Shown: positions 5,860 through 32,000, counted from the stretch's first letter. The stretch: DNA of 32,000 bases from Vitreoscilla stercoraria DSM 513 (GCF_000382305.1 NZ_KB908021.1:134293-166292), one strand, 5' to 3'. Numbers and translations are program-made. Notes: generated by a model not told the origin, from the letters alone.

Positions 5860-6202
5860 CTGTTAAATTCTTTTTAGTTTGGGTAAGAGCATACGAGAAT
5901 GATTTGTAAAAAATCAACTAAAAATTTTACTTTTAGTGTTATTTTTTATATCAAAAAAATAATGTATTTTTTATATATATTTATATTTCAATCTTAAATA
6001 TCAGTATGAGCGTTTTTAAAAAATGAGCTTGATTTGAATATGATTGGAATATAAAAAAACCTAATATCATCATTTTTATAATAGATTTTTATTAGAATAA
6101 TAGCCTACGATTTATATCTAAATTACTATGAATATAGATATTGCATATATAAATAATATAATTATTAGTTACTTTTAAAGTTTCTTGGTGAAAAGGTGCT
6201 TT

Positions 6203-6322
6203 ATGGGATTAACAAGTCTAAGTTGTATTGTACTCATGAAGGGCAATGCTAATTCCCGCAAGAATCAAACAGTCATTAATGGCAGCTTGTCATCGTTAGT
6301 TGGCTGCGGCTTTGAGATGTAA
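6203..6322 (+). CDS. Hypothetical 39-aa small ORF (MGLTSLSCIVLMKGNANSRKNQTVINGSLSSLVGCGFEM), or alternatively part of an sRNA
   Basis: An SD-like AAGGT lies 5 nt upstream of the ATG. The ORF sits in the only normal-GC islet of a 775-bp AT-rich spacer. Its stop lies between the arms of the hairpin GGCTGCGG/CCACAGCC (6302-6332). Confidence 0.2.
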   Translation: MGLTSLSCIVLMKGNANSRKNQTVINGSLSSLVGCGFEM

Positions 6323-6509
6323 AACCACAGCCAGTGTTGTTGTATATCGTTCTTAAATTTGGCCATAGTAATAGATATGAGAAAATTCTACTTTTTGTTT
6401 TATTGAAAGTAGGAGAATTATCGTGAAATTAATTTTCTAAATAAGGAGTGTTTTATTAAATCTTAATTTAACATAATGCCAATATGATAAATATCATTTT
6501 AAAAAATAT

Positions 6510-8705: not shown

Positions 8706-8736
8706 AGGCGTCCTGTAAACATTTACAGGACGCCTT
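8706..8736. terminator. Inverted pair of the uptake-sequence-like motif forming a bidirectional terminator hairpin
   Basis: AGGCGTCCTGTAAAcaTTTACAGGACGCCT flanked by A-run and T-run, between convergent genes. Confidence 0.8.
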
Positions 8737-10189: not shown

Positions 10190-10220
10190 AAGCGTCCTGT
10201 AAACATATTACAGGACGCTT
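10190..10220. terminator. Inverted pair of the uptake-sequence-like motif (bidirectional terminator)
   Basis: AAGCGTCCTGTAAAcataTTACAGGACGCTT between convergent genes. Confidence 0.8.
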
Positions 10221-11282: not shown

Positions 11283-12662
11283 ATGCATGATAACAAAACT
11301 TGGTCGGGTCGTTTCAACGAGCCTGTCTCTGAATTGGTGAAAAAATACACGGGTTCTATTGATTTTGACAAACGCTTGGCCACTTGGGACATTCAAGGCT
11401 CTTTGGCACATGCGCAAATGTTGCAAAAAGTAGGCGTTTTGTCTGAGCAAGATTTGGCTGATATTCAGCAAGGCATGGCTGAAATCTTAGAAGACATCCA
11501 AAATGGTCGCATCGAGTGGTCTTTGGATTTAGAAGACGTGCACATGAATATTGAGCGTCGCTTGACCGACAAAATTGGTGACGCGGGCAAACGTTTGCAT
11601 ACAGGCCGCTCACGCAATGACCAAGTGGCAACCGACATTCGTTTGTGGTTGCGCGATGAAATTACTGTGATTCAAGACTTGATTCGTGCTTTGCAAACAT
11701 CTTTGTTAGATTTGGCTGAAGAAAACGTGGATGTGGTGATGCCAGGCTTCACGCATTTACAGGTCGCTCAACCAGTGAGTTTTGGTCATCACATGCTCGC
11801 TTATGTGGAAATGTTAGGTCGCGACTTTGAACGCATGGTCGATTGCCGCAAACGTGTGAACCGCATGCCTTTGGGCGCGGCAGCATTGGCGGGCACCACT
11901 TACCCAATCGATCGCACGATTACAGCTGAATTGTTGGGCTTTGAGCAAATTTGTCAAAACTCATTGGACGCGGTGTCAGATCGTGATTTTGCGATTGAAT
12001 TTACCGCAGCTGCCAGCTTGGTGATGGTGCATTTGTCGCGTTTGAGCGAAGAATTGATTTTGTGGATGAGCCCGCGCGTGGGCTTCATCGACATTGCTGA
12101 CCGTTTCTGTACGGGTTCATCCATCATGCCACAAAAGAAAAACCCAGATGTGCCAGAATTGGTGCGTGGCAAATCAGGCCGTGTAGTAGGTCATTTGATG
12201 GGCATGATAGTATTGATGAAATCGCAACCTTTGGCCTACAACAAAGACAACCAAGAAGACAAAGAGCCTTTGTTTGATACGGTTGACACTTTGGTCGACA
12301 CTTTGCGCATTTACGCTGACATGATGCGCGGTGTGACGGTGAAAGCGGACAACATGCGTGCGGCAGTGATGCAAGGCTTTGCGATGGCCACCGATTTGGC
12401 TGATTACTTGGTGAAAAAAGGCATGCCATTCCGTGACAGCCACGAAGTGGTGGCTTTGGCAGTGCGTTTTGCCGATGGCAAAGGTGTGGATTTGAGCGAA
12501 TTGGCGTTTGAAGAATTGGCACAATTCAGTGATTTGATTGCCGAAGATGTGTTTGAATATTTAACACCAGAAGGCGCTTTGAATGCGCGTGACCATGTGG
12601 GTGGTACGGCACCGAACCAAGTGCGTGCACAAATTGCCCGTTGGCGTGAACTGATGGCTTAA
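11283..12662 (+). CDS. argH: Argininosuccinate lyase
   Basis: 459 aa with [20 protein letters not shown] and the signature [12 protein letters not shown]. Confidence 0.95.
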
Positions 12663-12690
12663 TCGATTGATTTAAGCCAATCAACCATAT

Positions 12691-12719
12691 AAGCGTCCTG
12701 TAATCTTTACAGGACGCTT
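12691..12719. terminator. Inverted pair of the uptake-sequence-like motif (bidirectional terminator)
   Basis: AAGCGTCCTGTAAtcTTTACAGGACGCTT followed by a T-run, between argH and sixA. Confidence 0.8.
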
Positions 12720-12743
12720 TTTTGCCATCATTGCTGTCCAAAT

Positions 12744-13211
12744 TTATCCATGATTTAAAAAAGCAGGTGTTAAAGACGCCACCAATGTGGTGTCCAAACG
12801 CTCTAAATTCATCTGCACACGCAACCACACAAACCCGCCTTTTTTAATTGTCCAATAATCATTGTGTTGTACGCCACCGTTCATACAATGTTCCCACACT
12901 TGCCCCAACCACGGTTGATGACCGATGACCAGCAAATTGGTTTTGTGTTGCGCCAGCAATAAAGGCAAAATATCTTGGTAATGGCTATCAGGATTGAGCT
13001 CGCTTTTGACATGGGTATGGTCGGTTAAAAAAGCGGCTGTTTCAATGCTGCGGTCGGCTTCTGAAGTCCATACAACGGTGTTTTTAGGCAAACGAGGTGC
13101 CAAATAAGCAGCCATGTCTTGTGCTTGTTGTTGTCCTTTACGGGTCAGCTTGCGACGGATGTCTGGTGTGCCATCAACGGCTTGGGCATGTCGCCATAAA
13201 ATCAAGTCCAT
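12744..13211 (-). CDS. sixA: Phosphohistidine phosphatase SixA
   Basis: The MDLILWRHAQA start carries the RH catalytic motif, and the size is about 155 aa. I trimmed the start to the ATG at 13211. Confidence 0.75.
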   Translation of the reverse strand: MDLILWRHAQAVDGTPDIRRKLTRKGQQQAQDMAAYLAPRLPKNTVVWTSEADRSIETAAFLTDHTHVKSELNPDSHYQDILPLLLAQHKTNLLVIGHQPWLGQVWEHCMNGGVQHNDYWTIKKGGFVWLRVQMNLERLDTTLVASLTPAFLNHG

Positions 13212-13263
13212 ATTTGCTCCAAAAAGGTTTGCTTTAATTGATGTGCAAGGCATAATGTTTGTC

Positions 13264-13767
13264 ATGAACCCATTGAATATTTGGTTATCATGTCAAGGCT
13301 TTAAGCTTGATGATAACATGACTTATCTGAACACATTATTACCAGCCATTCCTCTCACCCAAGCCTTACAACAGCTGCATGCGGATTTTTCAGTGCAAGT
13401 GTTGCATTTGGGTGTGGATGATGTGTGGCATGATGAACAAGATTGCATTGGCACCCACCGTGGTTTTAGCCGCGAAGTGTGTTTGTCTTTACAAAATCAT
13501 GCTGTGGTGTGGGCGCGCAGTGTCTGTGCTCACGATGCGCATCCGTGGCATGAAATTGTGCAATGTGGCACGCAGCCATTAGGCATGCGCTTATACCAAT
13601 TGCCGCTTAAGCGCACTGAATTTGAATATGCTTATTTATCGCCTGAGCATCCAGCCAATCCCAGCAATCAAACCATCGTCTCACGCCGTTCGTGTTTTTA
13701 TTTACAGGACGGCTCACCTTTATTATTGACCGAAAGTTTTTTACCTTCTTTGAAAAATTATGAATGA
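13264..13767 (+). CDS. ubiC: Chorismate pyruvate-lyase
   Basis: The C-terminal [22 protein letters not shown] matches E. coli UbiC [20 protein letters not shown]. It overlaps and precedes ubiA. The start is uncertain (13264 or 13318). Confidence 0.7.
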
Positions 13768-14644
13768 TTCTACAAAGGCTTTGACTTGGAAGCAAAAGTT
13801 ACAAGTGTATGGGCGCTTGATGCGCGTGGAAAAACCCATTGGCACGCTGCTGTTGTTGTGGCCGACTTATTGGGCGTTGTGGATTGCCTCTGATGGAAAC
13901 CCAGATTGGTTAATTGTCTTCGCCTTTACCTTGGGTACATTTTTAATGCGCAGTGCTGGCTGTGTGATTAATGATTATGCTGACCGTGATATTGATGGCG
14001 CAGTGGCACGTACTAAGGCACGCCCATTTGCGCAAGGTCAAGTGACTCAAAAAGAAGCCTTGCTTTTGACAGCTGCATTGTGTTTGATAGCAGGATTGTG
14101 TTTGTTGCCTTTAAATACATTGACATGGTGGATGAGTTTGCCTGCGGTATTTTTGGCAATCACTTACCCATTTACCAAACGCTTTTTCCCCATTCCTCAA
14201 TTGTATTTAGGCTTTGCTTTCTCGTTTGGTATTCCTATGGCGTTTGCGGCGGAAACCAATGCCGTTCCTGCCTTGGCATGGTTGTTGTTCAGCGCCAATG
14301 TGATTTGGACGATTGCTTACGATACGTGTTATGCGATGGCAGACAAAGAAGATGATTTAAAATTAAATATCAAAACATCAGCCATCACTTTTGGTGATTA
14401 TGATGTTGCTGCGGTCATGTTATGTCATGCTATCTTCATTTTATTGATGGTGATTGTGGGCATTCAGATTGATGCAACTTGGCCATATTGGTTGGCTTTA
14501 ATGGCGTGTGTGGCGCATCAGTATTGGCAATACACACAAATTAAACATCGTGACAGACAAAAGTGTTTTGAAGTGTTTTTGAAAAACAATCGCATCGGTT
14601 TGATGATCTTTATTGGCTTGGTTTTACATTACTGCTGGTCTTGA
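13760..14644 (+). CDS. ubiA: 4-hydroxybenzoate polyprenyltransferase
   Basis: 294 aa with the UbiA motifs [13 protein letters not shown] and [13 protein letters not shown]. It overlaps the ubiC stop by 8 nt. Confidence 0.9.
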
Positions 14645-14679
14645 GCATGCTTTTGCGTTAAAAGTCAACATTGTCAATA

Positions 14680-14707
14680 CGGCCTGAAACGCATAGAATT
14701 CAGGCCG
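14680..14707 (+). terminator. Hairpin after ubiA (weak terminator or ptsN leader structure)
   Basis: 9-bp stem CGGCCTGAA / TTCAGGCCG with a 10-nt loop. Only a weak T-tract follows. Confidence 0.4.
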
Positions 14708-14730
14708 CATTGTTAAGAAAGTGAAAAAAC

Positions 14731-15186
14731 ATGGTAATGAATGTGATAGGTGACATCCTACCTCTAGACCACATTGTGTTAGATTTGCCCGTTAGCAGTA
14801 AAAAACGTTTGTTTGAACAAATTGGCTTGTTGATTGAAAATCGTGCTGACATTGCCCGAGGCAATGTTTTTGAATGTTTGTTTGCCCGTGAAAAACTGGG
14901 CTCTACCGCGCTCGGTCACGGCGTTGCTATCCCACATGGTCGCTATGCTGGCTTAAGCCAACCCATTGGTGCTTTTATCCGTACCCAAGAGCCAATTGGT
15001 TTTGATGCACCTGATACCAAGCCAGTTAATCTTATTTTTGCTTTATTGGTGCCTGAAGGTGCCAACAGCATCCATTTAGAAGTATTGTCCCATTTGGCCA
15101 CCCGTTTTTCATCCAAAACCGTGCGTGAGCAATTGCTGCAAGCCAACGATGCCCAAACCATTCAAGCCATTTTGATGGCCGAATAA
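14731..15186 (+). CDS. ptsN: PTS IIA-like nitrogen regulatory protein PtsN
   Basis: 151 aa with the active-site context [10 protein letters not shown]. It lies upstream of hprK and rapZ. Confidence 0.85.
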
Positions 15187-15197
15187 GCGAGATTTCT

Positions 15198-16160
15198 ATG
15201 CCCAGTATTTCAGTACGCCGCCTGTATCAAGACAACCAACACAAATTAAAATTGGCATGGGCTGCAGGCACTGCAGGCATAGACAATCGCATCAGCATTG
15301 AGGCGGATAAACCTTTACTGGCTTTGGTCGGTCATTTGAATTTCATTCATCCAAACCAAGTGCAGGTTTTGGGCAGTGCTGAAGTGAATTACTTAAATGA
15401 TTTGGAAGCCAGTAAAGTTCGTACCAGTTTGAATGAATTGTTTGGTCGAACCATTGCCGTGGTGATTGTGGCCAATGATTTGCCCGTACCTTTTTTATTG
15501 CGTGATTATTGCCATACCCACAACGTGCCTTTATTGACATCTAAGCTAGAAAGTCCCTACTTGATGGACGTCTTGCGCATTTATTTACAGCGCGCTTTGG
15601 CAGCTTCAACCGTCATGCATGGTGTGTTTTTAGATGTATTTGAAGTCGGTGTGCTGTTGATGGGCAAATCAGGCTTGGGTAAAAGTGAGTTGGCACTGGA
15701 GTTGATTTCGCGTGGTCATGGTTTGGTGGCGGACGATGCAGTGGAATTGTACCGCATTGGTCCTGAAACCTTAGAAGGGCGTTGTCCGCCTGTATTGCGA
15801 GACTTTTTAGAAGTTCGTGGTTTGGGCGTCCTGAATATTCGTGCCATTTTCGGTGAAACAGCCATTCGTCCTAAAAAACCCTTAAAACTGATTATCAACT
15901 TGGTCAATGCCGATGACCAGTTGATGCAAAGTTTGGACAGATTGAGCATACAAAGCGAAAAACAAGACATTTTGAATGTCCACATTCGCAAAGTCAGCAT
16001 TCCTGTTGCGGCAGGTCGAAACTTGGCGGTTTTGGTAGAAGCGGCTGTACGCAATTTTATTTTGCAAAGTCGTGGTTTAGACAGCACCAAACAATTTATT
16101 GAGCGTCATACCCAAGTCTTGAAAGAGGATCAATTGAACGATGAGAGTCATTCTGATTAG
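15198..16160 (+). CDS. hprK: HPr kinase/phosphorylase
   Basis: 320 aa with the Walker [16 protein letters not shown], followed by LVADD and LEVRGLG. Confidence 0.9.
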
Positions 16161-16983
16161 TGGTTTGTCCGGTTCTGGCAAATCCATTGCTTTAAAGTCA
16201 TTGGAAGATTTGGGTTTTTTTTGTGTTGATAATTTGCCATTGGAATTATTACCACATTTGGTGATGTGGTATCAATCCAAATCAGACACCAAACATTTGG
16301 CCATTTGCTTGGACATGCGCGCTGGCATGAGTCAGGAACATTTCTTACCCATGTTAGAGGCCATTAAAAAATCAGTGCGTCAATTTGATGTATTGTATTT
16401 GGAAGCCAAAACCGAAATACTGCTCAATCGTTTTTCAGAAACCCGTCGCCGTCATCCTTTAACCCATGATAATTGTACCTTAGCCGAGGCTTTAAAATAC
16501 GAGCGAGAATGGTTGTATCCTTTGCGTGAACATGCGCATGTTGTAGACACCAGTGCTTTGTCCACACCTAAATTGCGCCAATACATTACAGCATGGGTCA
16601 ATTTGCCTAAAAGCAATTTGCAAATCGTGTTTCAATCGTTTGGTTTTAAATATGGCATACCCAGCGATGCTGATTTTGTTTTGGATGTCAGAAGCTTACC
16701 CAACCCTCATTACGAAGCCTCATTACGCGCTTTAACAGGGAAAGATAAGCCAGTAGCCATCTATTTTAAAGCCAACCCTGTGGTGCAAGACATGATTAAT
16801 GACATCACAGCATATCTCAATAAATGGTTACCACGCATTGAACAAGAGAATCGCAGTTATGTTACCGTTGCCATAGGCTGTACAGGTGGGCAACATCGTT
16901 CTGTCTATATCGTAGAACAATTGGCGTTGTCGTTCAAAGCGGCCAGTAAAAATGAAGTTTTAATACGCCACCGTCAGTTATAG
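16141..16983 (+). CDS. rapZ: RNase adapter protein RapZ
   Basis: [16 protein letters not shown]-loop and the C-terminal CTGGQHRSV motif. It overlaps hprK by 20 nt. Confidence 0.9.
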
Positions 16984-19763: not shown

Positions 19764-19793
19764 AAGCGTCCTGTAAATATTTACAGGACGCTT
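19764..19793. terminator. Inverted pair of the uptake-sequence-like motif (terminator of rluB)
   Basis: AAGCGTCCTGTAAAtaTTTACAGGACGCTT followed by TTTATTT. Confidence 0.8.
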
Positions 19794-21471: not shown

Positions 21472-21500
21472 AAGCGTCCTGTAACATTTACAGGACGCTT
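21472..21500. terminator. Inverted pair of the uptake-sequence-like motif (bidirectional terminator)
   Basis: AAGCGTCCTGTAAcaTTTACAGGACGCTT between convergent genes. Confidence 0.8.
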
Positions 21501-21515
21501 GTTTATATCTTAAAT

Positions 21516-22637
21516 TTATATCGTTGTCACTTGTATGTCTTTGCGCACCAACACGCCTACTGTTTCGTAATGCTGCGTGGCTGGAAACAAATCAAACAAA
21601 TCCACTTGCACCAATTCATATTCATCCAAACAAGTCACCATATCACGAGCAAAACTGGTCGGCTCACAAGCGATGAAAATCACTGCTTTGGGTTGGAATG
21701 CGGCGACAAAGTCTTTTAAGTTTTTCAAGCCTGAACGTGGTGGGTCGATAATTAAGCACGTTGGTTGCTGCAAATGTGTGGGAATAGCGGCCTGTAAACG
21801 TGTTAAAGCATCTTTGGCATACAGGTTTTGTGAAACAAATGTTTGAGTCTCGGTATTTTCAGGAGTATTGTCGCCATATTGATCCACGACCAAAGTTTGT
21901 TTGCCCAAAGGCAAGCTCAAATTGCCATTGCCGCCAAACAAATCATAAATGACCGCATCTTGTGGCAAATATTGCGTTGTCAAATGTGCCAACCATGTGG
22001 TGAGATAATGGTTCATGTGTGGGAAAACTTGCGTAAAACCACCATTGGCATAAGGACGGTTGACGCTGATGTGTATTTCATCGTCACGCCAATACAATTC
22101 AATGTGACCGCGTACAGGTTCTTGTTCGACCAATTGTAGCCATGCTTGGTTTTCATACAAACCTAAAACCGCTTCACGCACTTGTGCTTGCATCAATTGG
22201 CATTGAGAAACGGCAAACGGTTCATAATTAACATCCATCAGACCCAAAATTTGTTTGTCTTTTTGGTAATGCAATTGCACGCGGTTGCGATAATGAAAAC
22301 GCTGTGGTGCAGCATGTACGGTAATATCCACAGGTGGGAATTTGCGTAGGTGGCGTTGTAAGGCTTGTTGCTTGAAATTCAATTCGGTTGGATAGTCCAC
22401 ATGTTGGTAATCACAACCACCACATTGTGCATAATGAGGACAAGGCACATCTTGGCGTTTGGGTGAAGCTTGAATGATGTCGATGACATGGGCAAAGTGG
22501 ATGTTTTTTTTGCTGCGATAGACTTTGGCCTCTACTATTTCTTCAGGTAAGGTTTTGGCAATAAATGTAATTTGTCCATCGTCTTTGGCCACGCCTTGCC
22601 CCATGGTGTCCAAATCTATGATTTTGTAGTGCGTCAT
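21516..22637 (-). CDS. rlmD: 23S rRNA (uracil-5)-methyltransferase, RumA/RlmD family
   Basis: 373 aa with a short TRAM-like N-terminus, the Fe-S cysteine cluster CPHYAQCGGCDYQH, the SAM-binding region DLFGGNGN and the catalytic IACEPTS. Confidence 0.75.
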   Translation of the reverse strand: MTHYKIIDLDTMGQGVAKDDGQITFIAKTLPEEIVEAKVYRSKKNIHFAHVIDIIQASPKRQDVPCPHYAQCGGCDYQHVDYPTELNFKQQALQRHLRKFPPVDITVHAAPQRFHYRNRVQLHYQKDKQILGLMDVNYEPFAVSQCQLMQAQVREAVLGLYENQAWLQLVEQEPVRGHIELYWRDDEIHISVNRPYANGGFTQVFPHMNHYLTTWLAHLTTQYLPQDAVIYDLFGGNGNLSLPLGKQTLVVDQYGDNTPENTETQTFVSQNLYAKDALTRLQAAIPTHLQQPTCLIIDPPRSGLKNLKDFVAAFQPKAVIFIACEPTSFARDMVTCLDEYELVQVDLFDLFPATQHYETVGVLVRKDIQVTTI

Positions 22638-22791
22638 AATATTGTATAAGTCTTTATTGAAGCGAATTTGCCGCTATTGTACGCTAAAATAGGCAGGGTT
22701 TTAGCTGCATTATGGTACATCCATGCTAAAGCACGTAAATTTCAAAATAACATCACAACATATTTTTGGGCAGTAGAAAGCATAAGTACAC

Positions 22792-24012
22792 ATGGCATTG
22801 ACAGAATCTTGGTTAAAATCCCACCACCAAAAACCACATGACAAAGTCACAGAAGTGGCAGACAGGGACGGTATGAGTGTGCGGGTATCGCCTAAAGGGA
22901 AAATTGTGTTTCAATTGCGCTTTCGCTGGCGTGGGAAAGCGCAACGTTTGGATTTAGGCGTTTATCCTGACATGTCATTGAAACAAGCACGCTTACACAC
23001 TTGGGAGATGCGGGAGCAAATCGCTCAAGGCATAGACCCCAAGCAAGGCTTACAGGCCGCTTCTGATGATGATTTGCCTGCGGTTTTCGAGCGTTGGTAT
23101 CAGGCTTATTGTGTTGTAAACAAGAAAAACCATGCCGATATCAAACGCTCTTTTGAAATTCATGTCTTTCCGCATTTTCAACGTCAATGTTTTGGTGACA
23201 TCAGTTTGCAGCAATGGATGTTGTTATTGGACGATTTGGCTTTGCACAAAGAATCGATTGCCGCGCGGATTTTGTCCAATGCGCAACAATTGTACAAATG
23301 GGCGATGAAACGTGAATATGCCAAGCACAATGTCTTATTGGGTATTTCTGCCAAACATGATTTGCAAGTGAAAAAACGCAGTGGTGATAGGGTATTGAGC
23401 CAGACTGAAATTCAATGGCTGTGGCATGCTTTGAGTCATTCGCGCATGATGCTGAAAAACCAATTGTTTGTGAAACTGTGTTTGTTGTATGGTTGTCGCA
23501 ATGGTGAATTGCGCTTGGCTAAAAAAAGCGATTTTGATTTTCACACCAAAGTCTGGACTGTTCCACAAGAAAATCACAAAACAGGTGCTATCAGCGGTAA
23601 AGCTTTGTTGCGTCCCATAACCTCGCATACCGAGGCTTTATTGCATTTGGCCATGGATTTGAATGACAGTGAATTTTTGTTTTGTAATGCAGGTGGCGTA
23701 GAAGCGATGTCACGTTCTGTGCCTTTGTCTTTACCAACCAATATCATGCAATGGTTGAAATCTCAGCACCAAATAGACATGCCATATTGGTCTATGCATG
23801 ACTTGCGCCGTACCGCCCGCACCAATTTTAGCCGTTTGACCACGTTTGAAGTGGCTGAAATCATGTTAGGTCATGCATTACCTAAAATACAGGCCACTTA
23901 CGATCATTATGATTATTTGAGTGAGCAAACGGTGGCGTATGAAAAGTGGCATGAATGTGTTTTGGGATGGGTTAGCCATCATGATTTAGAAAAGCTGGCG
24001 TCCATCTTTTGA
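22792..24012 (+). CDS. int: Tyrosine-type site-specific integrase, P4/CP4-57/SXT-like with an N-terminal arm-binding (DUF4102-type) domain
   Basis: 406 aa. N-terminus DRDGMSVRVSPKGKIVFQLRFRWRGKAQRLDLGVYPDMSLKQAR, catalytic region HDLRRTARTNF...LGHALP...TYDHYDY. Confidence 0.9.
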   Translation: MALTESWLKSHHQKPHDKVTEVADRDGMSVRVSPKGKIVFQLRFRWRGKAQRLDLGVYPDMSLKQARLHTWEMREQIAQGIDPKQGLQAASDDDLPAVFERWYQAYCVVNKKNHADIKRSFEIHVFPHFQRQCFGDISLQQWMLLLDDLALHKESIAARILSNAQQLYKWAMKREYAKHNVLLGISAKHDLQVKKRSGDRVLSQTEIQWLWHALSHSRMMLKNQLFVKLCLLYGCRNGELRLAKKSDFDFHTKVWTVPQENHKTGAISGKALLRPITSHTEALLHLAMDLNDSEFLFCNAGGVEAMSRSVPLSLPTNIMQWLKSQHQIDMPYWSMHDLRRTARTNFSRLTTFEVAEIMLGHALPKIQATYDHYDYLSEQTVAYEKWHECVLGWVSHHDLEKLASIF

Positions 24013-24103
24013 TACATAGTCAGTATCATAAAATTAGTTTTCTATTTTCAAATTTCAAAACGAGTTAGGTTACTGAATGAATTGAGGGCAGTCATTAATG
24101 AAT

Positions 24104-24113
24104 CATCCCGATG
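24104..24113 (+). repeat. att-like core CATCCCGATG, copy 1 (direct repeat of prfC codons 20-22)
   Basis: Exact 10-mer, 92 bp after the integrase stop. The only other copy in the window is at 27138-27147. Confidence 0.45.
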
Positions 24114-24177
24114 ACTTTTAGCAATGGTTTCGTTACTTTTAACTTTTTTGCCAACAATCAATAATGCAGCACAGACA

Positions 24178-24207
24178 AAGCGTCCTGTAAATGTTTACAG
24201 GACGCTT
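24178..24207. terminator. Inverted pair of the uptake-sequence-like motif inside the integrase island
   Basis: AAGCGTCCTGTAAAtgTTTACAGGACGCTT followed by TTATTTTT. Confidence 0.8.
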
Positions 24208-24226
24208 TTATTTTTACAATTTTGAT

Positions 24227-24379
24227 TTATGTGCTGGTATCACAAAGCAACACAGCTTTGTTTTTTTGTGTATCTAAGCTCGCTTGATATGTCGTGTCCA
24301 TCTCTATATTTACCTCTGTTTGATATTGAACCGATTTCAGCGTGTTTTTGACGCTGGCATATGGTGCATCAAACGTCAT
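24227..24379 (-). CDS. Hypothetical 50-aa ORF abutting the IS3 left end (possible gene remnant)
   Basis: My own translation is MTFDAPYASVKNTLKSVQYQTEVNIEMDTTYQASLDTQKNKAVLLCDTST. The ATG lies 2 nt from the IS end. I saw no SD. Confidence 0.2.
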   Translation of the reverse strand: MTFDAPYASVKNTLKSVQYQTEVNIEMDTTYQASLDTQKNKAVLLCDTST

Positions 24380-24431
24380 GATGAACCGCCCCGGGTTTCT
24401 CGGAGACCTAACTTTCTGAGAGAATATCCGA

Positions 24432-24737
24432 ATGAAAAATACTTACTCACCTGAAATCCGTCAACGAGCGGTTCGCCTTTATCAAGAACAGCGCAGTGAA
24501 TATCCAACTCAGTGGGCCGCCACAGTGTCCATTGCCAGCAAGTTTGGCTGTACACCAGAAACACTGCGCACTTGGATTAAGAAGTTTGAAGCTGATCTGG
24601 CCGATAATGGGGCAGCGGCTGATCAAGCTCAACGCATTAAACAGCTCGAAAGAGACAATAAAGAGCTGCAACGCGCCAATGAAATTCTGCGCAAAGCTGC
24701 CGCTTTTTTCGCCCAGGCGGAGCTCGACCGCAAATAG
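24432..24737 (+). CDS. IS3-family transposase OrfA (HTH)
   Basis: 101 aa. The HTH region is followed by a leucine-zipper-like segment, LERDNKELQRANEILRKAAAFFAQ. Confidence 0.9.
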   Translation: MKNTYSPEIRQRAVRLYQEQRSEYPTQWAATVSIASKFGCTPETLRTWIKKFEADLADNGAAADQAQRIKQLERDNKELQRANEILRKAAAFFAQAELDRK

Positions 24738-25642
24738 GCGATTTGTTGGATTTTATTCATGAACACAAAATGGTGTATGGGGTCGAGTCAATTTGCCGAG
24801 TATTGCCGATTGCGCCATCCACTTATTATCGACATGCGCAAAGATTGAAACAGCCTGAATTGCGAGCCAAACGGTGCGTGTCGGATAAATGTTTATTGGC
24901 TCAAATCAACACTGTTTGGGAAGATAGTTTGCAAGTTTATGGTTACCGCAAAGTCTGGCACCAATTACAACGTGAAGGCGTTCAAGTTGCCCGCTGTACA
25001 GTTGCCAGACTGATGCGCAAACACAGCATACAAGGGGTTTGGCGGGGTAAAGGCAAACGCACTACAGTGTGTGATCCAGAGTTGCAACGGGCCGATGATT
25101 TGGTGAATCGGCAGTTTACAGCCAGTCGGCCAAATCAATTGTGGGTAGCCGATTTCACCTATGTGTCTACCCACCAGGGCTTTGTGTATACGGCTTTCAT
25201 CATCGATGTGTTTGCTCGGCGCATTGTTGGTTGGAAGGTGGCAAAACGGATGGATACCGACTTGGTGATGGATGCATTGGAGCAGGCTTTGCATGCCAGA
25301 AACAAGCCCAAACACCTCATTCACCACAGTGATCGAGGCAGCCAATATCTGTCGATTCGTTACACCGAACGTTTACAGGCCGCTCAAGTGAAGGCTTCGG
25401 TCGGAACAACTGGTGATTCGTATGACAATGCTTTGGCTGAAACGGTGAATGGTTTGTACAAAACTGAGGTCATCCATCATCAAAAACCATGGAGGCGGAT
25501 GATTGATGTTGAATTAGCAACACTAAACTGGGTGGATTGGTTCAATCATCGACGTTTGTTAAGCTCGATAGGTTATGTTCCACCAGCCGAATTTGAAATG
25601 GCGTATTATCGCCAATTGGAAGAGTCAGCCAAAGTGGCATGA
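24704..25642 (+). CDS. IS3-family transposase OrfB (DDE), expressed as OrfAB by -1 frameshift
   Basis: The slippery heptamer T_TTT_TTC sits at 24704-24710 in the orfA frame. The -1 frame is open from 24683. DDE motifs are WVADFTY, HSDRGSQY and DNALAE. Confidence 0.85.
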   Translation, partial: FFRPGGARPQIGDLLDFIHEHKMVYGVESICRVLPIAPSTYYRHAQRLKQPELRAKRCVSDKCLLAQINTVWEDSLQVYGYRKVWHQLQREGVQVARCTVARLMRKHSIQGVWRGKGKRTTVCDPELQRADDLVNRQFTASRPNQLWVADFTYVSTHQGFVYTAFIIDVFARRIVGWKVAKRMDTDLVMDALEQALHARNKPKHLIHHSDRGSQYLSIRYTERLQAAQVKASVGTTGDSYDNALAETVNGLYKTEVIHHQKPWRRMIDVELATLNWVDWFNHRRLLSSIGYVPPAEFEMAYYRQLEESAKVA

Positions 25643-25776
25643 CTCAAGATAAACTGTCTCCGAAATACTTGGGTCGGTTCATTCAACTTGGCATCATCGC
25701 TTTAAATCTTTATTGAATGAATTTCCTGATATTGATATTGACAGTTGGAAACTATGGAGTTCTTAAAATGAGAAAG

Positions 25777-25824
25777 CCCCCATTCTTGTTTTTCCTAGCC
25801 AAAAAAGCTAGGCAAAAATGGGGG
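25777..25824. other. Nested double hairpin just right of the IS3 element
   Basis: Outer stem CCCCCAT / ATGGGGG encloses the inner stem CCTAGC-CAAAAAA-GCTAGG. Confidence 0.5.
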
Positions 25825-25860
25825 AGTTATTAGAATGAATTATATTTTTATCAGCCTTGA

Positions 25861-25888
25861 TTGTCAACGTATTTCTATTGACTAATAT
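25861..25888 (+). promoter_or_regulatory. Candidate sigma70 promoter
   Basis: TTGTCA (25861-25866), a 16-nt spacer, then TAATAT (25883-25888). Confidence 0.35.
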
Positions 25889-25936
25889 TGTAAATTCTGT
25901 TAATTCAAAAGCCTAAGAAATAATATTTACATAGGG

Positions 25937-25961
25937 AACGGTCCGAAAAGGCCGTTTTTTT
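25937..25961 (+). terminator. Rho-independent terminator about 40 nt upstream of the three-gene cassette
   Basis: Stem AACGG(T)CC / GGCCGTT with a GAAAA loop. The T-run is 7 nt, its first two T's completing the stem. Confidence 0.65.
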
Positions 25962-26002
25962 ATTCTTACAATGGATTCACTTTTAATTGAAAGGTGAAAC
26001 CG

Positions 26003-26236
26003 ATGCAACAGATTACTTTAACGGCCCAAGAGGCTGTAAAAGTCCAAGATTTGAACGTGGCATGGATGCAAAAATGGCTGAACGTACATGGCGCTTATCC
26101 TGCTCTGATTGTTGATGGCGATGGTGGCAGTTTAACCCGTGCAGCCATCATTCAATTATTCGCCAACAAAAATGCCATGCCGATTCTGGAATTCCAACTA
26201 CAACACATTGCTGAGCAGTTGGGTGATACCAAATGA
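26003..26236 (+). CDS. Small protein with a peptidoglycan-binding-like (PG_binding_1-type) repeat and no catalytic domain
   Basis: MQKWLNVHGAYPALIVDGDGGSLTRAAIIQLF fits the LQ..L...GY.p..vDG.fG..T..Av..FQ pattern. SD AAGG lies 8 nt upstream of the ATG at 26003. Confidence 0.5.
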   Translation: MQQITLTAQEAVKVQDLNVAWMQKWLNVHGAYPALIVDGDGGSLTRAAIIQLFANKNAMPILEFQLQHIAEQLGDTK

Positions 26237-26598
26237 CTCTTATCGGATCTTTGCCAGCTGAATGTTTTTTTGCAGGTTGTTTTTTAGGGTTTTGTTTGGT
26301 GGGTGTACACAGCCGCGTGACCCGTTGGAACAGCGTGGCCACAATCGTGATTACCTCATTAATCGTGATTACCTCATTTGTGGCAGGCAGTTTGCCGCCA
26401 TTTTTTGGGATGTGGTTAGGCTTGCCGCGTGAAGGCTATTTATTTGTAGCAGTATTCTCAGCCATTGCTTGGCCATTTATTTCGTTGCGACTACATGAAG
26501 CATTTTTTGTAGCGTGTAACAAATTGATTTTGGCCATGCCTGATATATTGCCGGATGTGATTAAAAAGCTGTTGAGTAAGAAATGGGGAGGTGGCTGA
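26233..26598 (+). CDS. Hypothetical 121-aa membrane protein (about 3 TM), holin-like in size and topology
   Basis: ATGA start/stop overlap with the upstream ORF. It has three hydrophobic segments and a basic C-terminus, KKLLSKKWGGG. Confidence 0.6.
   Translation: MTLIGSLPAECFFAGCFLGFCLVGVHSRVTRWNSVATIVITSLIVITSFVAGSLPPFFGMWLGLPREGYLFVAVFSAIAWPFISLRLHEAFFVACNKLILAMPDILPDVIKKLLSKKWGGG
26343..26378 (+). repeat. Perfect 18-bp tandem duplication (AATCGTGATTACCTCATT x2), in frame
   Basis: Read directly. It encodes IVITSL-IVITSF within predicted TM2 of the 121-aa protein. Confidence 0.95.
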
Positions 26599-26599
26599 G

Positions 26600-26866
26600 A
26601 TGGTGATTTTACAATTCGTCATCTTGGCCGTGATGTTTGTTTTTTCTGCGTGCGTGGTGGCCAAAGAACGTTTTTGTTTGAATTGCCAACATGAAGTGGT
26701 GCGTTTGCTGTTTCATGCATCGTTTGGTACTTATGCCATGGCCCGAATCTATTGTTTGTTAAGATTTGATCCCTTGGTGCCGTGGTGGCTAATAGGAATA
26801 GAGGTTATATTAGCCATAATCATTTGTCTGCGTTTTTTGATAAAGTTATTCAAAGAGGAGAATTGA
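26600..26866 (+). CDS. Hypothetical 88-aa membrane protein (2-3 TM) with a charged C-terminus, holin/antiholin-like
   Basis: Strong SD GGAGG lies 8 nt upstream of the ATG at 26600, which is 1 nt after the upstream stop. Hydrophobic N- and C-terminal segments end in KLFKEEN. Confidence 0.55.
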   Translation: MVILQFVILAVMFVFSACVVAKERFCLNCQHEVVRLLFHASFGTYAMARIYCLLRFDPLVPWWLIGIEVILAIIICLRFLIKLFKEEN

Positions 26867-26981
26867 ATAATTAAGGGATATCTTCATTTAATAACAATAC
26901 AGCAATGAAAAACTCAGTACAAATGAATCTTGATGCACTTTAGTGGTAGTGCTAAAATGTTTTTATTCTCAAGTTACAAAA

Positions 26982-27017
26982 GAAGCCCTGTTTTAGATGC
27001 AGGGCTTCCGTATTTTT
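26982..27017 (+). terminator. Rho-independent terminator after the three-gene cassette
   Basis: Perfect 9-bp stem GAAGCCCTG / CAGGGCTTC followed by CGTATTTTT. Confidence 0.7.
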
Positions 27018-27080
27018 AAAAATTAGCCAAATTTTTTATTTGTACATAATTGTGTACATATCACTATCAAAGACAGCAAG

Positions 27081-28682
27081 ATGATTGAAAAAATCCAAGA
27101 AGAATCAAAGCGAAGAAGGTCATTCGCAATCATTTCACATCCCGATGCGGGTAAAACCACTTTAACAGAAAAATTATTGCTGTTCTCGGGTGCTATCCAA
27201 TCAGCAGGCACGGTCAAAGGTAAGAAGTCTGGCAAGTTTGCCACTTCAGACTGGATGGAAATTGAGAAACAACGTGGCATTTCGGTGGCATCATCAGTGA
27301 TGCAATTTGATTACCGTGAACACGTTGTCAATTTGCTCGACACTCCCGGACACCAAGACTTCTCAGAAGATACTTATCGAGTATTAACAGCCGTAGACAG
27401 CGCTTTGATGGTGATTGATGCTGCCAAAGGTGTGGAAGAACAAACCATCAAATTGTTGAATGTTTGTCGTATGCGCAATACGCCGATTGTGACATTCATG
27501 AACAAATATGACCGTGAAGTACGTGATTCTTTAGAATTGTTGGATGAGGTTGAAAGCGTCCTGAAAATTCGCTGTGCACCTGTGACTTGGCCAATTGGTA
27601 TGGGCAAAAGTTTCCGTGGTGTGTACCACATGCTCAACGACGAAGTGTATTTGTTTGAAGCGGGCGCACAAAAACTCAGTCATGAGTTTGAAGTGATTCA
27701 AGGTTTGGACAACCCTCGCTTGGACGAATTGTTCCCTATGGAAATGGAACAATTGCGCATGGAAATTGAATTGGTACAGGCCGCTTCCAATGAGTTCAAT
27801 TTGGAAGAATTCTTGGCAGGCGAATTAACACCGGTATTCTTCGGCTCAGCAATTAACAATTTTGGTGTGCGTGAAATCTTGGATGCCTTGATTGATTGGG
27901 CACCAGCTCCGCATGCACGTGCAGCCATTGAACGCGTGGTAGAGCCAGACGAGGCAAAATTCACAGGTTTCGTGTTCAAAATTCAAGCCAATATGGACCC
28001 GAAACACCGTGACCGCATTGCATTTTTGCGTGTGTGTTCAGGCCAGTTTACCCGTGGCATGAAAATGAAACACATCCGTATTAACCGTGATATTGCAGCG
28101 TCTAGCGTGGTGACATTCATGTCACATGATCGCGAATTGGTCGAAGAAGCTTATTCAGGTGACATCATCGGCATTCCAAACCATGGCAATATTCAAATTG
28201 GTGACAGCTTCTCTGAAGGTGAAATTTTGACCTACACCGGCATCCCATTTTTCGCGCCTGAAATGTTCCGCAGTGTCCGTATTAAAAACCCTCTGAAGAT
28301 GAAGCAATTGCAAAAAGGTTTGCAACAATTGGGTGAAGAAGGTGCGGTACAGGTTTTCAAACCACACAATGGCGGTGATTTGATTTTGGGTGCGGTGGGT
28401 GTGCTCCAGTTTGAAGTGGTTGCCGCTCGTTTGGCGGGTGAGTATGGTGTGGATGCGGTATTTGATTCTGCCAGCATTTGGTCGGCTCGTTGGGTGTCTT
28501 GTGACGATAAGAAAAAACTGGCTGAGTTTGAACGCGCCAATGTGTTGAATTTGTCTACCGATGCTGGTGGTAATTTGGCTTACTTGGCACCGAATCGGGT
28601 CAATTTGAATTTGACCCAAGAACGTTGGCCTGACATCACATTCCATGAAACCCGTGAATTGAACCATACATTCAATGATTGA
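27081..28682 (+). CDS. prfC: Peptide chain release factor 3
   Basis: 533 aa with [27 protein letters not shown] and NKYD GTPase motifs across a full-length RF3 pattern. Confidence 0.95.
27138..27147 (+). repeat. att-like core CATCCCGATG, copy 2 (His20-Pro21-Asp22 of prfC)
   Basis: Exact direct repeat of 24104-24113. Confidence 0.45.
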
Positions 28683-28702
28683 TTGGAACTGAAACAGTTC
28701 TC

Positions 28703-28732
28703 AAGCGTCCTGTAAATGTTTACAGGACGCTT
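28703..28732. terminator. Inverted pair of the uptake-sequence-like motif (bidirectional terminator, prfC/sstT)
   Basis: AAGCGTCCTGTAAAtgTTTACAGGACGCTT between convergent genes. Confidence 0.8.
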
Positions 28733-28764
28733 CTTTAATAAGGTGGCGTTATAATTAAAATGAT

Positions 28765-30474: not shown

Positions 30475-30828
30475 CTATGTCTTCAAATTCTGAAAATCTT
30501 GTTTCATCTGAAAAGGTGTCGGCTCTACTGGATATACTGCAATAAGAATCTTGGATTTAAAGGATAAATTCTTACAAACAGTAGGATCAATACGAATAAT
30601 GACCAATTCAATCGGTTCATTTCTAATATCGGGTTCACAAATCATAATTGATTGACTGCGATTCAAAACAATGTAATTCGGAAAAGTATCTTGAACAATT
30701 TGTTTAAAATTACCATTTTTTGATGACTTTTGAAAAATTTGCTTAAATGGTTTTTTAGGACGAATAGCCATAAACAAACAAAAAGCAATTGCAGAAAAAA
30801 TGATTAAATCATATGTATCTTTAGACAT
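30475..30828 (-). CDS. Hypothetical 117-aa protein with an N-terminal TM anchor, directly downstream of zot
   Basis: ORF with the hydrophobic segment LIIFSAIAFCLFMAI and AT-rich composition like the zot remnant. Confidence 0.55.
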   Translation of the reverse strand: MSKDTYDLIIFSAIAFCLFMAIRPKKPFKQIFQKSSKNGNFKQIVQDTFPNYIVLNRSQSIMICEPDIRNEPIELVIIRIDPTVCKNLSFKSKILIAVYPVEPTPFQMKQDFQNLKT

Positions 30829-30836
30829 GATAAAGC

Positions 30837-30877
30837 CCTACAAATAAAGAATAATGACATTATTCTTTATTTGTAGG
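30837..30877. repeat. 41-bp near-perfect palindrome (20-bp arms) overlapping the zot stop codon
   Basis: CCTACAAATAAAGAATAATG-a-CATTATTCTTTATTTGTAGG, read directly. The right arm encodes the last 5 codons and the stop of zot. Confidence 0.95.
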
Positions 30878-31722
30878 CTGTTGGATAGTAGATTGATTTA
30901 CAGACTGACTTGATGACTTATAAGGATTGTAACGACCTTCTTTCAACCACTTTTTACAAAATGCTTGTGGAATATCTAATAAAGTACCCTGGTCAGAATA
31001 TGCTTTGCAAACACCATTGGATTCAATCAATGCAACAGGATATTCAAAAGACTGAACCTTACGCACATCATCATAAATGGGCTTAGACTCGGGCATTTCA
31101 GGTAATACAGGCGTAAAATGCTGAGGTGTCAAAGATTTGGAAAGAGTTGCAGAAGAGGTTCCAGAGCCCACCGGAACAGGCTGTAAAACATCATTATTCA
31201 TTTGAGCTTCAATTTTATTTTGAGGTGCAACATCTACAACAGTAGGTTTCTGTGTGGTTTCTTTTATACGATTAGATATATGCCAAGCAGACAATAAAAT
31301 CATGCCGATACACGCAAATAAAACATAGACCATCGGACTAACACGACGTTTATGCTTAACGTGTACAGATGAGCTTTTATAATAATCAAAAGCCTTTTTA
31401 GGCGGTTTATAAAGTCTAGACGTAGCTTCTTTAAGCATCATAGGACTAAAGCTAGTCACACATTCATTCCATTCATAAAGCCTCGTAGTGGCTTGTTTGC
31501 GAGCTAAATGAATGTGTCTTGAAACCAAGTTTCTAACATACGAATCAATATTGCTAGGGTGTTGCGTCATGATAATGAGCGTATGACCCTGATGACGTAA
31601 TTCCGTCAATTTTGAAATGTAATCAGGCACAGCCTTAGTTGATGGGCGTACTGGATACACATAATGACATTCATCTACAATAATCAAAGACCCAACAGGA
31701 AACAAATTTTCTAAAGTATCAG
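30860..31722 (-). pseudogene. zot: Zonula occludens toxin-like / filamentous phage assembly protein pI, N-terminally truncated
   Basis: The Walker B region SLIIVDECH is present with a downstream TM (VYVLFACIGMILL) and a C-terminal domain. The Walker A P-loop is missing. The reading frame runs into the IS21-type end at 31722/31723. Confidence 0.8.

Positions 31723-32000
<278 letters not shown>

Follow-up and report, generated by a model that had tools for sequence, protein, structure and literature searches.

The conserved backbone of SXT/R391 ICEs spans ~47 kb and includes genes for conjugative transfer, the setCD/setR regulon and xis. The SXT attP consensus is ATcATcTCtCACCCtGA (PMC9058013), and in an SXT-type att region (L111) a TGTACA-N6-TGTACA pair lies before the leader and a GTACA pair after the core. 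In E. coli, integration of Stx2c phages in prfC has been reported (PMC10132054). The Stx1a/Stx2c-converting lambdoid prophages at this gene (LC727877.1; PMC10132054) are complete and ~50 kb long, with a displaced native leader and with TGTACA pairs upstream of int; their two cores are a 14-bp duplication, ATTATTTCTCACCC, which is annotated in LC727877.1 in the IISHP codons at both prophage ends. Tandem arrays at prfC have been documented for SXT/R391 (PMC5812530) and proposed for Stx phages (PMC10132054), and lepA is a prophage site in Salmonella (PMC3603311). A prfC-targeting element of such a kind is already known.

We have analysed a window of 32 kb (the whole stretch of DNA examined here) from the betaproteobacterium Vitreoscilla stercoraria DSM 513 (Neisseriaceae), in which an island of 4.5 kb lies between rlmD and prfC. 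Very probably, positions 22638-27141 are a fossil temperate phage inserted at the start of prfC, of which int has been retained while the interior has decayed, and in which a 10-bp repeat copy at 24104 is due to chance. The island shares with the E. coli Stx prophages a homologous Int, an int that lies at the left end and is co-oriented with prfC, phage late genes beside the right end, a P arm (TTTGTACATATGATTGTACATAATCAAAGAGACAACAATTATG in E. coli, TTTGTACATAATTGTGTACATATCACTATCAAAGACAGCAAGATG in the window), and an apparently phage-supplied leader that ends in the IISHP core. Unlike them, it is a remnant, lacks attL, P' arm and xis, and has become fixed across lineages. With the SXT/R391 ICEs it shares the prfC target codons and a homologous integrase, and like these ICEs and the Stx phages, the proposed phage would supply a new promoter and 5' end. 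On the other hand, the window has no conjugation, setCD/setR or xis genes and its cargo is phage-derived, while its Int is nearer to phage integrases (44-57% identity) than to the SXT type (37%). The features of the locus are as follows.

21516-22637, minus strand: rlmD, 23S rRNA U1939 methyltransferase (Pfam and NCBIfam matches), the left host flank
22638-22791: truncated left junction, rlmD-int intergenic, without att core, displaced prfC leader or P'-arm TGTACA pair
22792-24012, plus strand: tyrosine integrase int, 406 aa, intact, of a phage clade targeting the 5' ends of prfC, lepA or lysC
24013-24378: spacer after int, without xis, holding the second copy of CATCCCGATG (24104-24113)
24098-24121: mini-ORF MNHPDDF-stop in this spacer, containing the 24104 copy
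24177-24208: terminator-forming inverted repeat, like a host-type uptake sequence (terminator scan; 12-mer repeat)
24379-25685, plus strand: IS3-family insertion sequence (Pfam; NCBIfam transpos_IS3, 323.6 bits)
24432-24737, plus strand: IS3 orfA
24743-25642, plus strand: IS3 orfB
24701-24817, plus strand: IS3 frameshift pseudoknot (Rfam ALIL, 80.9 bits)
25686-25993: non-coding prophage remnant (blastn to L013 16967-17549 of strain C1, ~96% identity)
25933-25960: terminator-like hairpin (terminator scan), earlier taken as a small RNA-like unit
25994-26236, plus strand: truncated endolysin gene, N-terminal part (peptidoglycan-binding-like similarity)
26233-26866, plus strand: two short ORFs (121 aa and 91 aa) with hydrophobic products, behind the endolysin as in strain C1
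27041-27058, plus strand: paired TGTACA sites of the putative phage P arm, TGTACATAATTGTGTACA, presumed Int arm-type sites
27081-27141, plus strand: putative phage-supplied prfC leader, Met1-Pro21 (alignment with the E. coli attR)
~27128-27141, plus strand: att core equivalent ATCATTTCACATCC (homology with the 14-bp duplication in LC727877.1)
27081-28682, plus strand: prfC, release factor 3 (NCBIfam prfC, 890 bits; 90% identical to V. massiliensis PrfC)

The integrase and its family

The product of int has the N-terminal arm, central and catalytic domains of a tyrosine recombinase (Pfam Arm-DNA-bind_3 PF13356, Phage_int_M PF22022 and Phage_integrase PF00589) together with the conserved catalytic residues; the columns invariant across 28 integrase homologues include His336-x-x-Arg339, His361 and Tyr370 (window numbering). 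No tRNA or tmRNA is present anywhere in the window. Both results agree with the initial annotation, which had placed at 22792-24012 a tyrosine integrase with no tRNA beside it.

The best homologues of this Int show 50-57% identity, and its closest relatives (44-57%) include E. coli Stx2c phages annotated as residing in prfC, whose Int is 43.9% identical over 96% of the length. The SXT-type Int (413 aa), which we located via a published SXT int primer, is more distant at the value given above. That is, the window Int is homologous to integrases with documented insertion in prfC. In three further sequences (L001, L004 and L041), an int of 51-54% identity lies 174-212 bp downstream of prfC leader fragments, and L002, L084 and L091 have an intact attP with leader. 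The sisters that target lepA or lysC (IMG/VR L040, L096; L020, L027, L051 and others), with Int 45-51% identical to that of the window, share with the prfC-targeting relatives the TGTACA pairs and a displaced gene start upstream of int ('IRNFSIIAHI' for lepA, 'MALIVQK' for aspartokinase); the window differs from these sisters in that its P arm is fused to prfC.

As the integrase tree has a star-like shape, with polyphyletic use of the targets prfC, lepA and lysC, the target is not assignable at clade level or from phylogeny alone. The integrase comparison suggested earlier has confirmed homology to prfC-inserting enzymes, but the tree gives no target. Overall, sequence comparison supports the view that the window integrase is a member of a clade that uses the IISHP(D) codons near the prfC 5' end as its insertion site, and the earlier proposal of prfC targeting is borne out by the leaders and attP sites of the family and by the E. 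coli Stx2c phages, not by the 10-mer.

The 10-bp repeat and the island interior

As described initially, CATCCCGATG occurs exactly twice in the window, both times on the plus strand: at 24104-24113, 92 nt past the int stop, and at 27138-27147, beginning with the first base of His20 in the His20-Pro21-Asp22 codons of prfC. This repeat had led to a proposal of tandem accretion, with a decayed attL at 22718 ahead of an int module, a further att at 24104 and, between it and attR at 27138, an int-less CIME of 3 kb; 24114-27137 would then be mobilisable by Int in trans. In favour of it, the repeat is exact and direct, one copy stands close behind int, the sequence falls partly within the family's att region, and the tandem arrays at prfC cited above provide precedents. 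In addition, the 24104 copy is in frame with an ATG, with GAGGG 9 nt upstream, and the resulting mini-ORF resembles the end of the L084 attP leader ('HPDD...'), so that this copy may be a relic att. Nevertheless, we consider such an accretion unlikely. The copy at 27138 overlaps the mapped core (27128-27141) by just 4 nt, the other 6 nt belonging to the host B' arm, and the leader-coding left half, ATCATTTCA, matches at only 3/9 positions at 24104. To the left of 24104, a stop codon stands 7 codons away, and neither a leader with RRTFAIIS codons nor a promoter or TGTACA pair is present; to the right there is no TGTACA pair or other sign of a P' arm, no int and no continuation of prfC. An internal att with core and arms, as a CIME should have, is thus not seen at this place.

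Statistically, the repeat carries no weight. Exact direct pairs of 10-mers number 2009 in the window as a whole. When the island was simulated with a first-order Markov model, 51% of the simulations showed a recurrence of at least one 10-mer from the first 100 nt of prfC, and 17% a recurrence of a 10-mer that overlaps the att core region. The local alignment between 24013-24378 and the prfC 5' end is equalled by 105 of 2000 shuffles. The recurrence at 24104 is therefore probably a matter of chance (P 0.17-0.5), and the earlier caution about the limited statistical weight of a 10-mer match was justified. As to the supposed decayed attL, the letters of a gapped CATCC--ATG are indeed present at 22718-22725, but this interpretation of them is unsupported: the alignment of 22638-22791 with the prfC 5' end is equalled by 1464 of 2000 shuffles, no match at 22718 and no leader in the window besides prfC's own emerged from a relaxed F-A-I-I-S-H-P peptide scan, and the equivalent site in the related lineage L099 reads TGGCGATG, with both flanks conserved.

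Alignment of the locus with relatives, the check proposed earlier, did reveal polymorphism within the island. The breakpoints lie at 23974/27038 for L099 and at 24383/25691 and 26232/26233 for strain C1, but none at 24113/27137, and L099 has a single CATCCCGATG copy. Because the breakpoints of the relatives never fall at the 10-mers, tandem accretion is unsupported. No Vitreoscilla sequence showed an empty site or a displaced native prfC leader, so we infer the integration event from architecture and homology rather than from a before/after pair.

The content of the island also differs among the lineages. Strain C1, with an island of 8.9 kb, has an antirepressor (Ant), PHROG tail proteins and an endolysin, as well as IS elements, in the interval from the same int to prfC; in L099, int is directly followed by the P arm. 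Taking the window and C1 together, the gene content of the island amounts to int, IS elements and phage genes for Ant, tail proteins and endolysin, which is not the gene set of an SXT/R391 ICE. As strain C1 keeps antirepressor, tail and endolysin genes, the island should be a degraded prophage, and the earlier analogy with ICEs finds no support.

In the window, the spacer after int (24013-24378) is 99.9% identical in C1 and absent in L099. The element behind it has the orfA/orfB pair, programmed -1 frameshift and imperfect terminal inverted repeats (TGATGAACCGCCCC and TGAATGAACCGACCC) of the IS3 family; no clear target duplication is seen at its ends, and it stands in place of ~5.4 kb held by C1. 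The remnant at 25686-25993 has no Rfam family match. The truncated endolysin is 92% identical to the first 76 aa of a C1 ORF (L013:17320-17697), with a PG_binding_1 match (E = 0.001) below the curated cut-off, and lacks 347 bp that carry the muramidase domain in C1, where its neighbour matches PF11860 Muramidase and a PHROG endolysin. The 121-aa and 91-aa ORFs, with no match in Pfam, NCBIfam or PHROG, may be holin- or spanin-like remnants of the lysis cassette.

The two ends of the island

At the right end, TGTACA-N6-TGTACA has a single match in 32 kb even at 1 mismatch, and starts 40 nt before the prfC ATG. Since this motif marks P arms and occurs only once, at this place, 27041-27141 is best read as the phage P arm (attR). 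The region aligns with phage P arms. In the E. coli Stx2c attR, the L002 attP, V. massiliensis and L099, a TGTACA pair stands 37-39 nt ahead of the leader's ATG; for the degenerate pairs in the L084 and L091 attP the distances are 47 and 26 nt, respectively. These pairs are presumably Int arm sites. Further downstream, prfC reads ATCATTTCACATCCCGA, a 13/17 match to the SXT attP consensus. The junction thus has the form of an attR, with a promoter and leader of the element fused to prfC at the IISHP(D) codons, which supports the reading of prfC as a hybrid, its 5' end derived from the phage and its body from the host. It had been suggested earlier that the element supplies a new prfC 5' end with the right junction in those codons; this suggestion stands, on the strength of the TGTACA signature instead of the 10-mer.

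A different reading is that the island merely sits between rlmD and prfC, the promoter and leader being native and the TGTACA pair a host operator. In its favour, V. massiliensis has the pair and a similar leader, with an rlmD-prfC interval free of integrase and phage genes. We nevertheless regard this reading as quite improbable, since the motif recurs, with almost equal spacing from the leader, in E. coli Stx2c prophages, metagenomic attP and SXT-type att regions, i.e., in unrelated hosts, and TGTACA pairs are also present upstream of int in the integrase family. Moreover, native prfC genes (E. coli, L001, L004 and Snodgrassella) have no such pair upstream, and the uniqueness of the pair in the window does not suit a host operator.

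At the left end, the host flank is preserved, with an rlmD product 75% identical to V. massiliensis RlmD. V. massiliensis also has, upstream of its rlmD, conserved counterparts of the blocks 22664-22683 and 22724-22740. Among the 17 relatives with sequence upstream of int, 15 have an exact GTACA pair ~54-69 nt before the gene (28-40 in L004) and the remaining 2 have degenerate pairs. The window int has no P'-arm TGTACA pair upstream, only a single GTACA at -8. The relatives carry xis after int, and tblastn found no xis homologue here. An attL, with a core matching that of the right end and a displaced native prfC 5' fragment upstream of int, is not present. The window element is a truncated relic, not an intact member of the prfC-targeting modules, and as attL and xis are absent, no excision is predicted. 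The truncation should be ancestral, because 22638-22791 is collinear with L099 at ~88% identity. That a functional minimal island of int and att still excises and reintegrates is hardly credible: the int ORF is intact, under purifying selection and next to an intact P arm and core, but the island has no second core copy, P' arm or xis, its left junction became fixed before the window and L099 parted and is collinear in the two, and a scan with close-relative patterns found this Int in 0 of 185,579 species-representative genomes.

Selection on int and the proposed history

We have calculated dN/dS between the window and L099, and in this one pairwise comparison the values are 0.049 for int (dS 0.77), 0.030 for prfC and 0.056 for rlmD. 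The int gene is intact and under purifying selection, even in a lineage without any other phage gene; this was the unexpected result of the analysis. In principle, related phages acquired on two separate occasions could have given rise to the two ints, although the truncated junction that both lineages have in common speaks against this.

On the fossil-phage reading, a temperate phage would have entered the start of prfC in a Vitreoscilla ancestor and supplied a new gene start. Its integrase would have recombined the IISHP(D) codons at the prfC 5' end with a phage attP carrying a surrogate promoter and ~20 leader codons, preceded by the paired TGTACA (presumed Int arm-binding sites). Integration would have pushed the native prfC start to the int side and joined the host prfC body to the phage leader. 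The attL core, displaced native leader, P' arm and xis should have been lost before the window and L099 lineages diverged, and the element would no longer have been able to excise. Afterwards, the interior would have decayed in a lineage-specific manner: C1 keeps phage genes and IS, L099 keeps nothing, and the window strain has the IS3 with an adjacent deletion and a truncated lysis cassette. What is retained would be int at the left end and, at the right end, P arm, leader and core (27041-27141), which are probably the working prfC 5' end today. As int seems to have been kept by selection after immobilisation, it may now be of some use to the host.

Probable fossil prophage at the 5' end of prfC

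The element between rlmD and prfC (22638-27141) is the fossil of a prophage, and elements of this kind are already known. The initial annotation regarded it as a prfC-targeting integrase element that supplies the 5' end of the gene, and this core inference is right, although the evidence that supports it is other than the 10-bp repeat proposed there as the att site. The features needed for the argument are as follows.

22792-24012, int, tyrosine integrase ORF of 406 aa with the domains Arm-DNA-bind_3, Phage_int_M and Phage_integrase
24104-24113 and 27138-27147, both + strand, the two exact copies of the 10-mer CATCCCGATG
24379-25685, IS3 element
27041-27058, TGTACA-N6-TGTACA
27081-28682, prfC (NCBIfam prfC, 890 bits)
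27128-27141, ATCATTTCACATCC, putative equivalent of the att core

That the SXT/R391 elements insert into the prfC 5' end and provide a surrogate gene start is textbook knowledge, and the same has been documented for E. coli Stx phages (PMC10132054), among which Stx2c-converting phages are reported to be integrated at prfC. In a tblastn search against GenBank phages, the window Int is 43.9% identical, over 96% of the protein, to the Int of Stx2c-converting phages. In LC727877.1, a 14-bp duplication, ATTATTTCTCACCC, is annotated at both prophage ends. The left end consists of the native E. coli prfC start, the core, TGTACA pairs and int, while the right end reads TTTGTACATATGATTGTACATAATCAAAGAGACAACAATT-ATG, phage leader, core and prfC body. 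The SXT/R391 attP consensus ATcATcTCtCACCCtGA falls in the same prfC codons as the Stx2c duplication (PMC9058013).

The TGTACA-N6-TGTACA motif occurs once in the window, even if one mismatch is allowed. Its first base lies 40 nt before the prfC ATG, and the corresponding distance is 38 nt in the E. coli attR, 37 nt in the attP of a phage contig with an integrase homologue (L002), and 39 nt in Vitreoscilla massiliensis. The pair is absent from native prfC upstream regions, i.e., the E. coli attL B arm, two loci of integrase homologues (L001 and L004) and Snodgrassella, whose PrfC is 86% identical. From these sequence comparisons we have concluded that 27041-27141 should be the phage P arm plus leader, and that the core should correspond to 27128-27141. 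Of the 10-mer, 4 nt fall in this core and the rest in the host B' arm.

V. massiliensis, the nearest species in the representative-genome scan (RlmD 75%, PrfC 90% identical), carries TGTACATAACCGTGTACA 39 nt before the prfC ATG (L005 5778-5830, minus strand relative to the locus). Between its prfC and rlmD lie BenE, an HTH-cupin regulator and a 565-aa ORF without a PHROG or Pfam match, and no integrase or phage gene. The conservation in this species of the TGTACA box and of the rlmD upstream blocks was also considered as the mark of a native prfC 5' end; for prfC this reading was rejected on finding the same box in phage P arms and before int in unrelated hosts. The V. massiliensis prfC start thus looks like a phage-derived one that has outlived its phage, and since the pair and a related leader are present there with no int at the locus, int is not required in this species for prfC expression.

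With the published SXT int primer as query, SXT-type loci were recovered from metagenome contigs, and no match was found in viral contigs. The SXT-type Int of these loci (413 aa) is 37% identical to the window Int. The att region of one such contig, L111, has TGTACAAATAGTTGTACA before the leader and a GTACA pair after the core, so that paired TGTACA sites flank the core on both sides (6196-6465), as in the phage family; unlike in the phage layout, its int is ~2.7 kb away on the opposite strand.

Repeats and the left end

The initial annotation correctly described the integrase ORF, the lack of a tRNA beside it (ARAGORN finds no tRNA or tmRNA in the 32 kb), and the 10-mer, which is exact only at its two positions, the second being His20-Pro21-Asp22 of prfC. 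The repeat itself is statistically weightless. There are 2009 exact direct 10-mer pairs in the window, and six exact 10-mers are common to 24013-24400 and 25686-27160. When random islands were simulated with a Markov model, 51% of them repeated a 10-mer of the first 100 nt of prfC, and 17% repeated one overlapping the att core. The gapped third copy proposed near 22718 does not hold either, as the score of that region is reached by 1464 of 2000 shuffles. At this position L099, a contig of a related lineage, reads TGGCGATG, and its single copy of CATCCCGATG is located in prfC. Three alternative att repeats, AAATTTCAAAA (22737/24050), TAAGTCTTTATTGAA (22647/25703) and TGAATGAATT (24074/25714), were rejected as AT-rich matches at chance level.

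The copy at 24104 could alternatively be a relic att site. It is in frame with an ATG that has GAGGG 9 nt upstream, and it encodes HPDD as in L084, a locus of the integrase family. On the other hand, a stop codon stands seven codons to its left and the RRTFAIIS codons are absent, while on the right neither a TGTACA pair nor int nor a prfC continuation follows, but a host-type palindrome resembling an uptake sequence. Nor do relatives show a consistent core-like copy 3' of int; their post-int regions hold dispersed 7-9-mers with no fixed position and no more of them than expected by chance, and a family feature at this place was rejected accordingly. We consider a relic very improbable, and the 24104 copy is regarded as a chance match. 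The mini-ORF that contains it (24098-24121, ATG AAT CAT CCC GAT GAC TTT TAG, MNHPDDF*) recalls the 'HPDD' at the end of the attP leader in L084. If the two 10-mers recombined, the product would be an in-frame prfC shortened at the N-terminus, though the mini-ORF context is probably a coincidence.

The palindrome type is common in this DNA: the 12-mer GCGTCCTGTAAA occurs 22 times in 977-28730 with at most one mismatch (0.14 expected), mostly as inverted pairs forming terminators 3' of genes (e.g., 8708-8733, 10192-10218, 12693-12717, 19766-19791, 21474-21498, 24180-24205 and 28705-28730). It looks like a DNA-uptake-sequence dialect of this lineage, and the island contains one of the pairs, 165 nt 3' of int.

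In relatives, the core is ~200 bp upstream of int, with repeats and, nearer to int, TGTACA pairs between the two, and a convergent xis-like HTH gene directly follows int. In the window, the start codons of rlmD and int are only 154 bp apart, and we have found no TGTACA pair at the left end, no leader-like peptide in the whole window except in prfC, and no xis remnant 3' of int by tblastn. The rlmD upstream region of V. massiliensis shares two conserved blocks with the rlmD-int intergenic region (22664-22683 and 22724-22740). Two Logan contigs, L099 and L100, represent a further lineage, in which prfC shows 97% identity at the protein level and about 88% at the DNA level. Their order is rlmD, an intact int (400 aa), 148 bp with a terminator hairpin, the TGTACA pair and prfC; they are homologous to 22328-23974 and 27038-28736, and 23975-27037 is absent. 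The window and L099 are collinear across the left junction, so attL and the P' arm were lost before the two lineages split.

Differences among relatives end at 23974/27038, 24383/25691 or 26232/26233, and never at 24113/27137, where the initial annotation had placed the borders of an int-less segment accreted in tandem. As the 24104 copy lacks att context too, this CIME-like layout is unsupported.

Decayed interior of the island

From rlmD through int, the window and Vitreoscilla sp. strain C1 (CP019644.2; PMC6256453) share 99.9% identity. C1 has the same int and prfC with a rlmD-prfC distance of 8.9 kb. Besides IS remnants, the C1 interior contains a Bro-N/Ant antirepressor, PHROG 4333, two tail proteins, an endolysin (PF11860) and two small membrane ORFs, and late genes adjoin the P arm in L002 as well. 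The analogy with an integrative conjugative element is therefore unsupported, as the interior is that of a prophage.

The IS3 element stands where C1 has its positions 11593-16966. A matching target-site duplication is absent, and the flanks of the element are non-contiguous in C1, where 5.4 kb of IS and phage DNA separate them. By this arrangement an IS-associated deletion is likelier than a simple insertion. The window also lacks 347 bp of C1 that carry the muramidase domain, so that the 80-aa ORF at 25994-26236 retains no more of the endolysin region than its N-terminal part; what had been described as a three-gene cassette is a broken lysis cassette. No Rfam family matches the supposed small RNA-like unit, and no PHROG or Pfam entry matches the two small membrane ORFs or the 66-aa ORF beside IS3. 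A perfect 18-bp tandem duplication (26343-26378, two copies of AATCGTGATTACCTCATT) adds six in-frame codons to the 121-aa membrane ORF.

Among species-representative genomes, the integrase query gave no match and the RlmD query retrieved V. massiliensis as the sole close relative; no true empty prfC site was obtained from these scans. Outside the island, a filamentous-prophage remnant lies downstream of the SDF transporter gene (~30475-32000, mapped from L011 11395-13487). Its C1 counterpart (L010 11399-17222) carries Zot-like, TspB, DUF2523, Phage_Coat_B and Rep_trans genes, and an IS21-family element (IstB/IstA), which runs past the window end, truncates the Zot gene of the window strain.

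Integrase family and conservation of int

The best int homologues are only 50-57% identical, and no tRNA lies near them in the three contexts examined. Truncated gene starts, which are displaced prfC 5' ends, are found 204 bp upstream of int in L001 and 174 bp upstream in L004 (Alcanivorax sp. IL3), and at the same position L002 has an intact attP, i.e., terminator, TGTACAAAACTGTGTACA, promoter-like stretch and leader, with further TGTACA sites ~130 bp past the leader and then int. Searching IMG/VR with the family alignment recovered 80 loci. The GTACA pair with 12-nt spacing is exact in 15 of the 17 loci overall that have int-upstream sequence and degenerate in the other two, and the exact pair is ~54-69 nt from int (28-40 nt in L004).

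Besides prfC leaders in three further loci (L041, L084 and L091), lepA starts (IRNFSIIAHI) lie upstream of int in L040 (1-331) and L096 (150-484), and an aspartokinase start (MALIVQK) lies ~330 nt upstream in eight (L020, L027, L051, L057, L060, L062, L078 and L080); these sister integrases are 45-51% identical. The displaced starts imply that members of the clade integrate at the 5' ends of genes, which receive a new start from them. We read the IRNFSIIAHI codons of lepA as paralogous to the FAIISHPD codons of prfC. One phage-integrase clade thus switches between the 5' ends of several genes, two of which encode translational GTPases and are entered at an apparently equivalent position. A neighbour-joining tree for target specificity was star-like and uninformative.

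The orphan conserved integrase is the one unexpected feature of the element. Although attL, the P' arm and xis are gone, and one lineage has no other phage gene left, it has stayed intact under purifying selection like that on housekeeping genes.

Nei-Gojobori estimates, window versus L099
Gene; dN/dS; dS
int; 0.049; 0.77
prfC; 0.030; 0.68
rlmD, N-terminal part; 0.056; 0.44

The divergence of int is in step with that of its host neighbours and its constraint is equal, while the remaining prophage has decayed or vanished. This single pairwise comparison suggests that int has been kept by selection after immobilisation. It adjoins the phage-derived prfC promoter, which still carries the paired TGTACA sites, the presumed targets of the arm-binding domain of the family. 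Domestication is possible rather than probable; int might then act as a prfC regulator, or as a resident recombinase deciding whether arriving phages or int-less satellites can use the prfC site.

In itself the finding is ordinary and of modest value, as prfC 5'-end insertion is known from both SXT/R391 and Stx phages. It extends this integration module to Neisseriaceae, and one clade, with TGTACA arm pairs in common with SXT-type elements, serves prfC, lepA and lysC. In several Vitreoscilla lineages, including the int-less V. massiliensis, the working promoter and the first ~20 codons of a translation factor gene are phage-derived and fixed, and the orphan integrase, with its housekeeping-like conservation, is a candidate exapted tyrosine recombinase.
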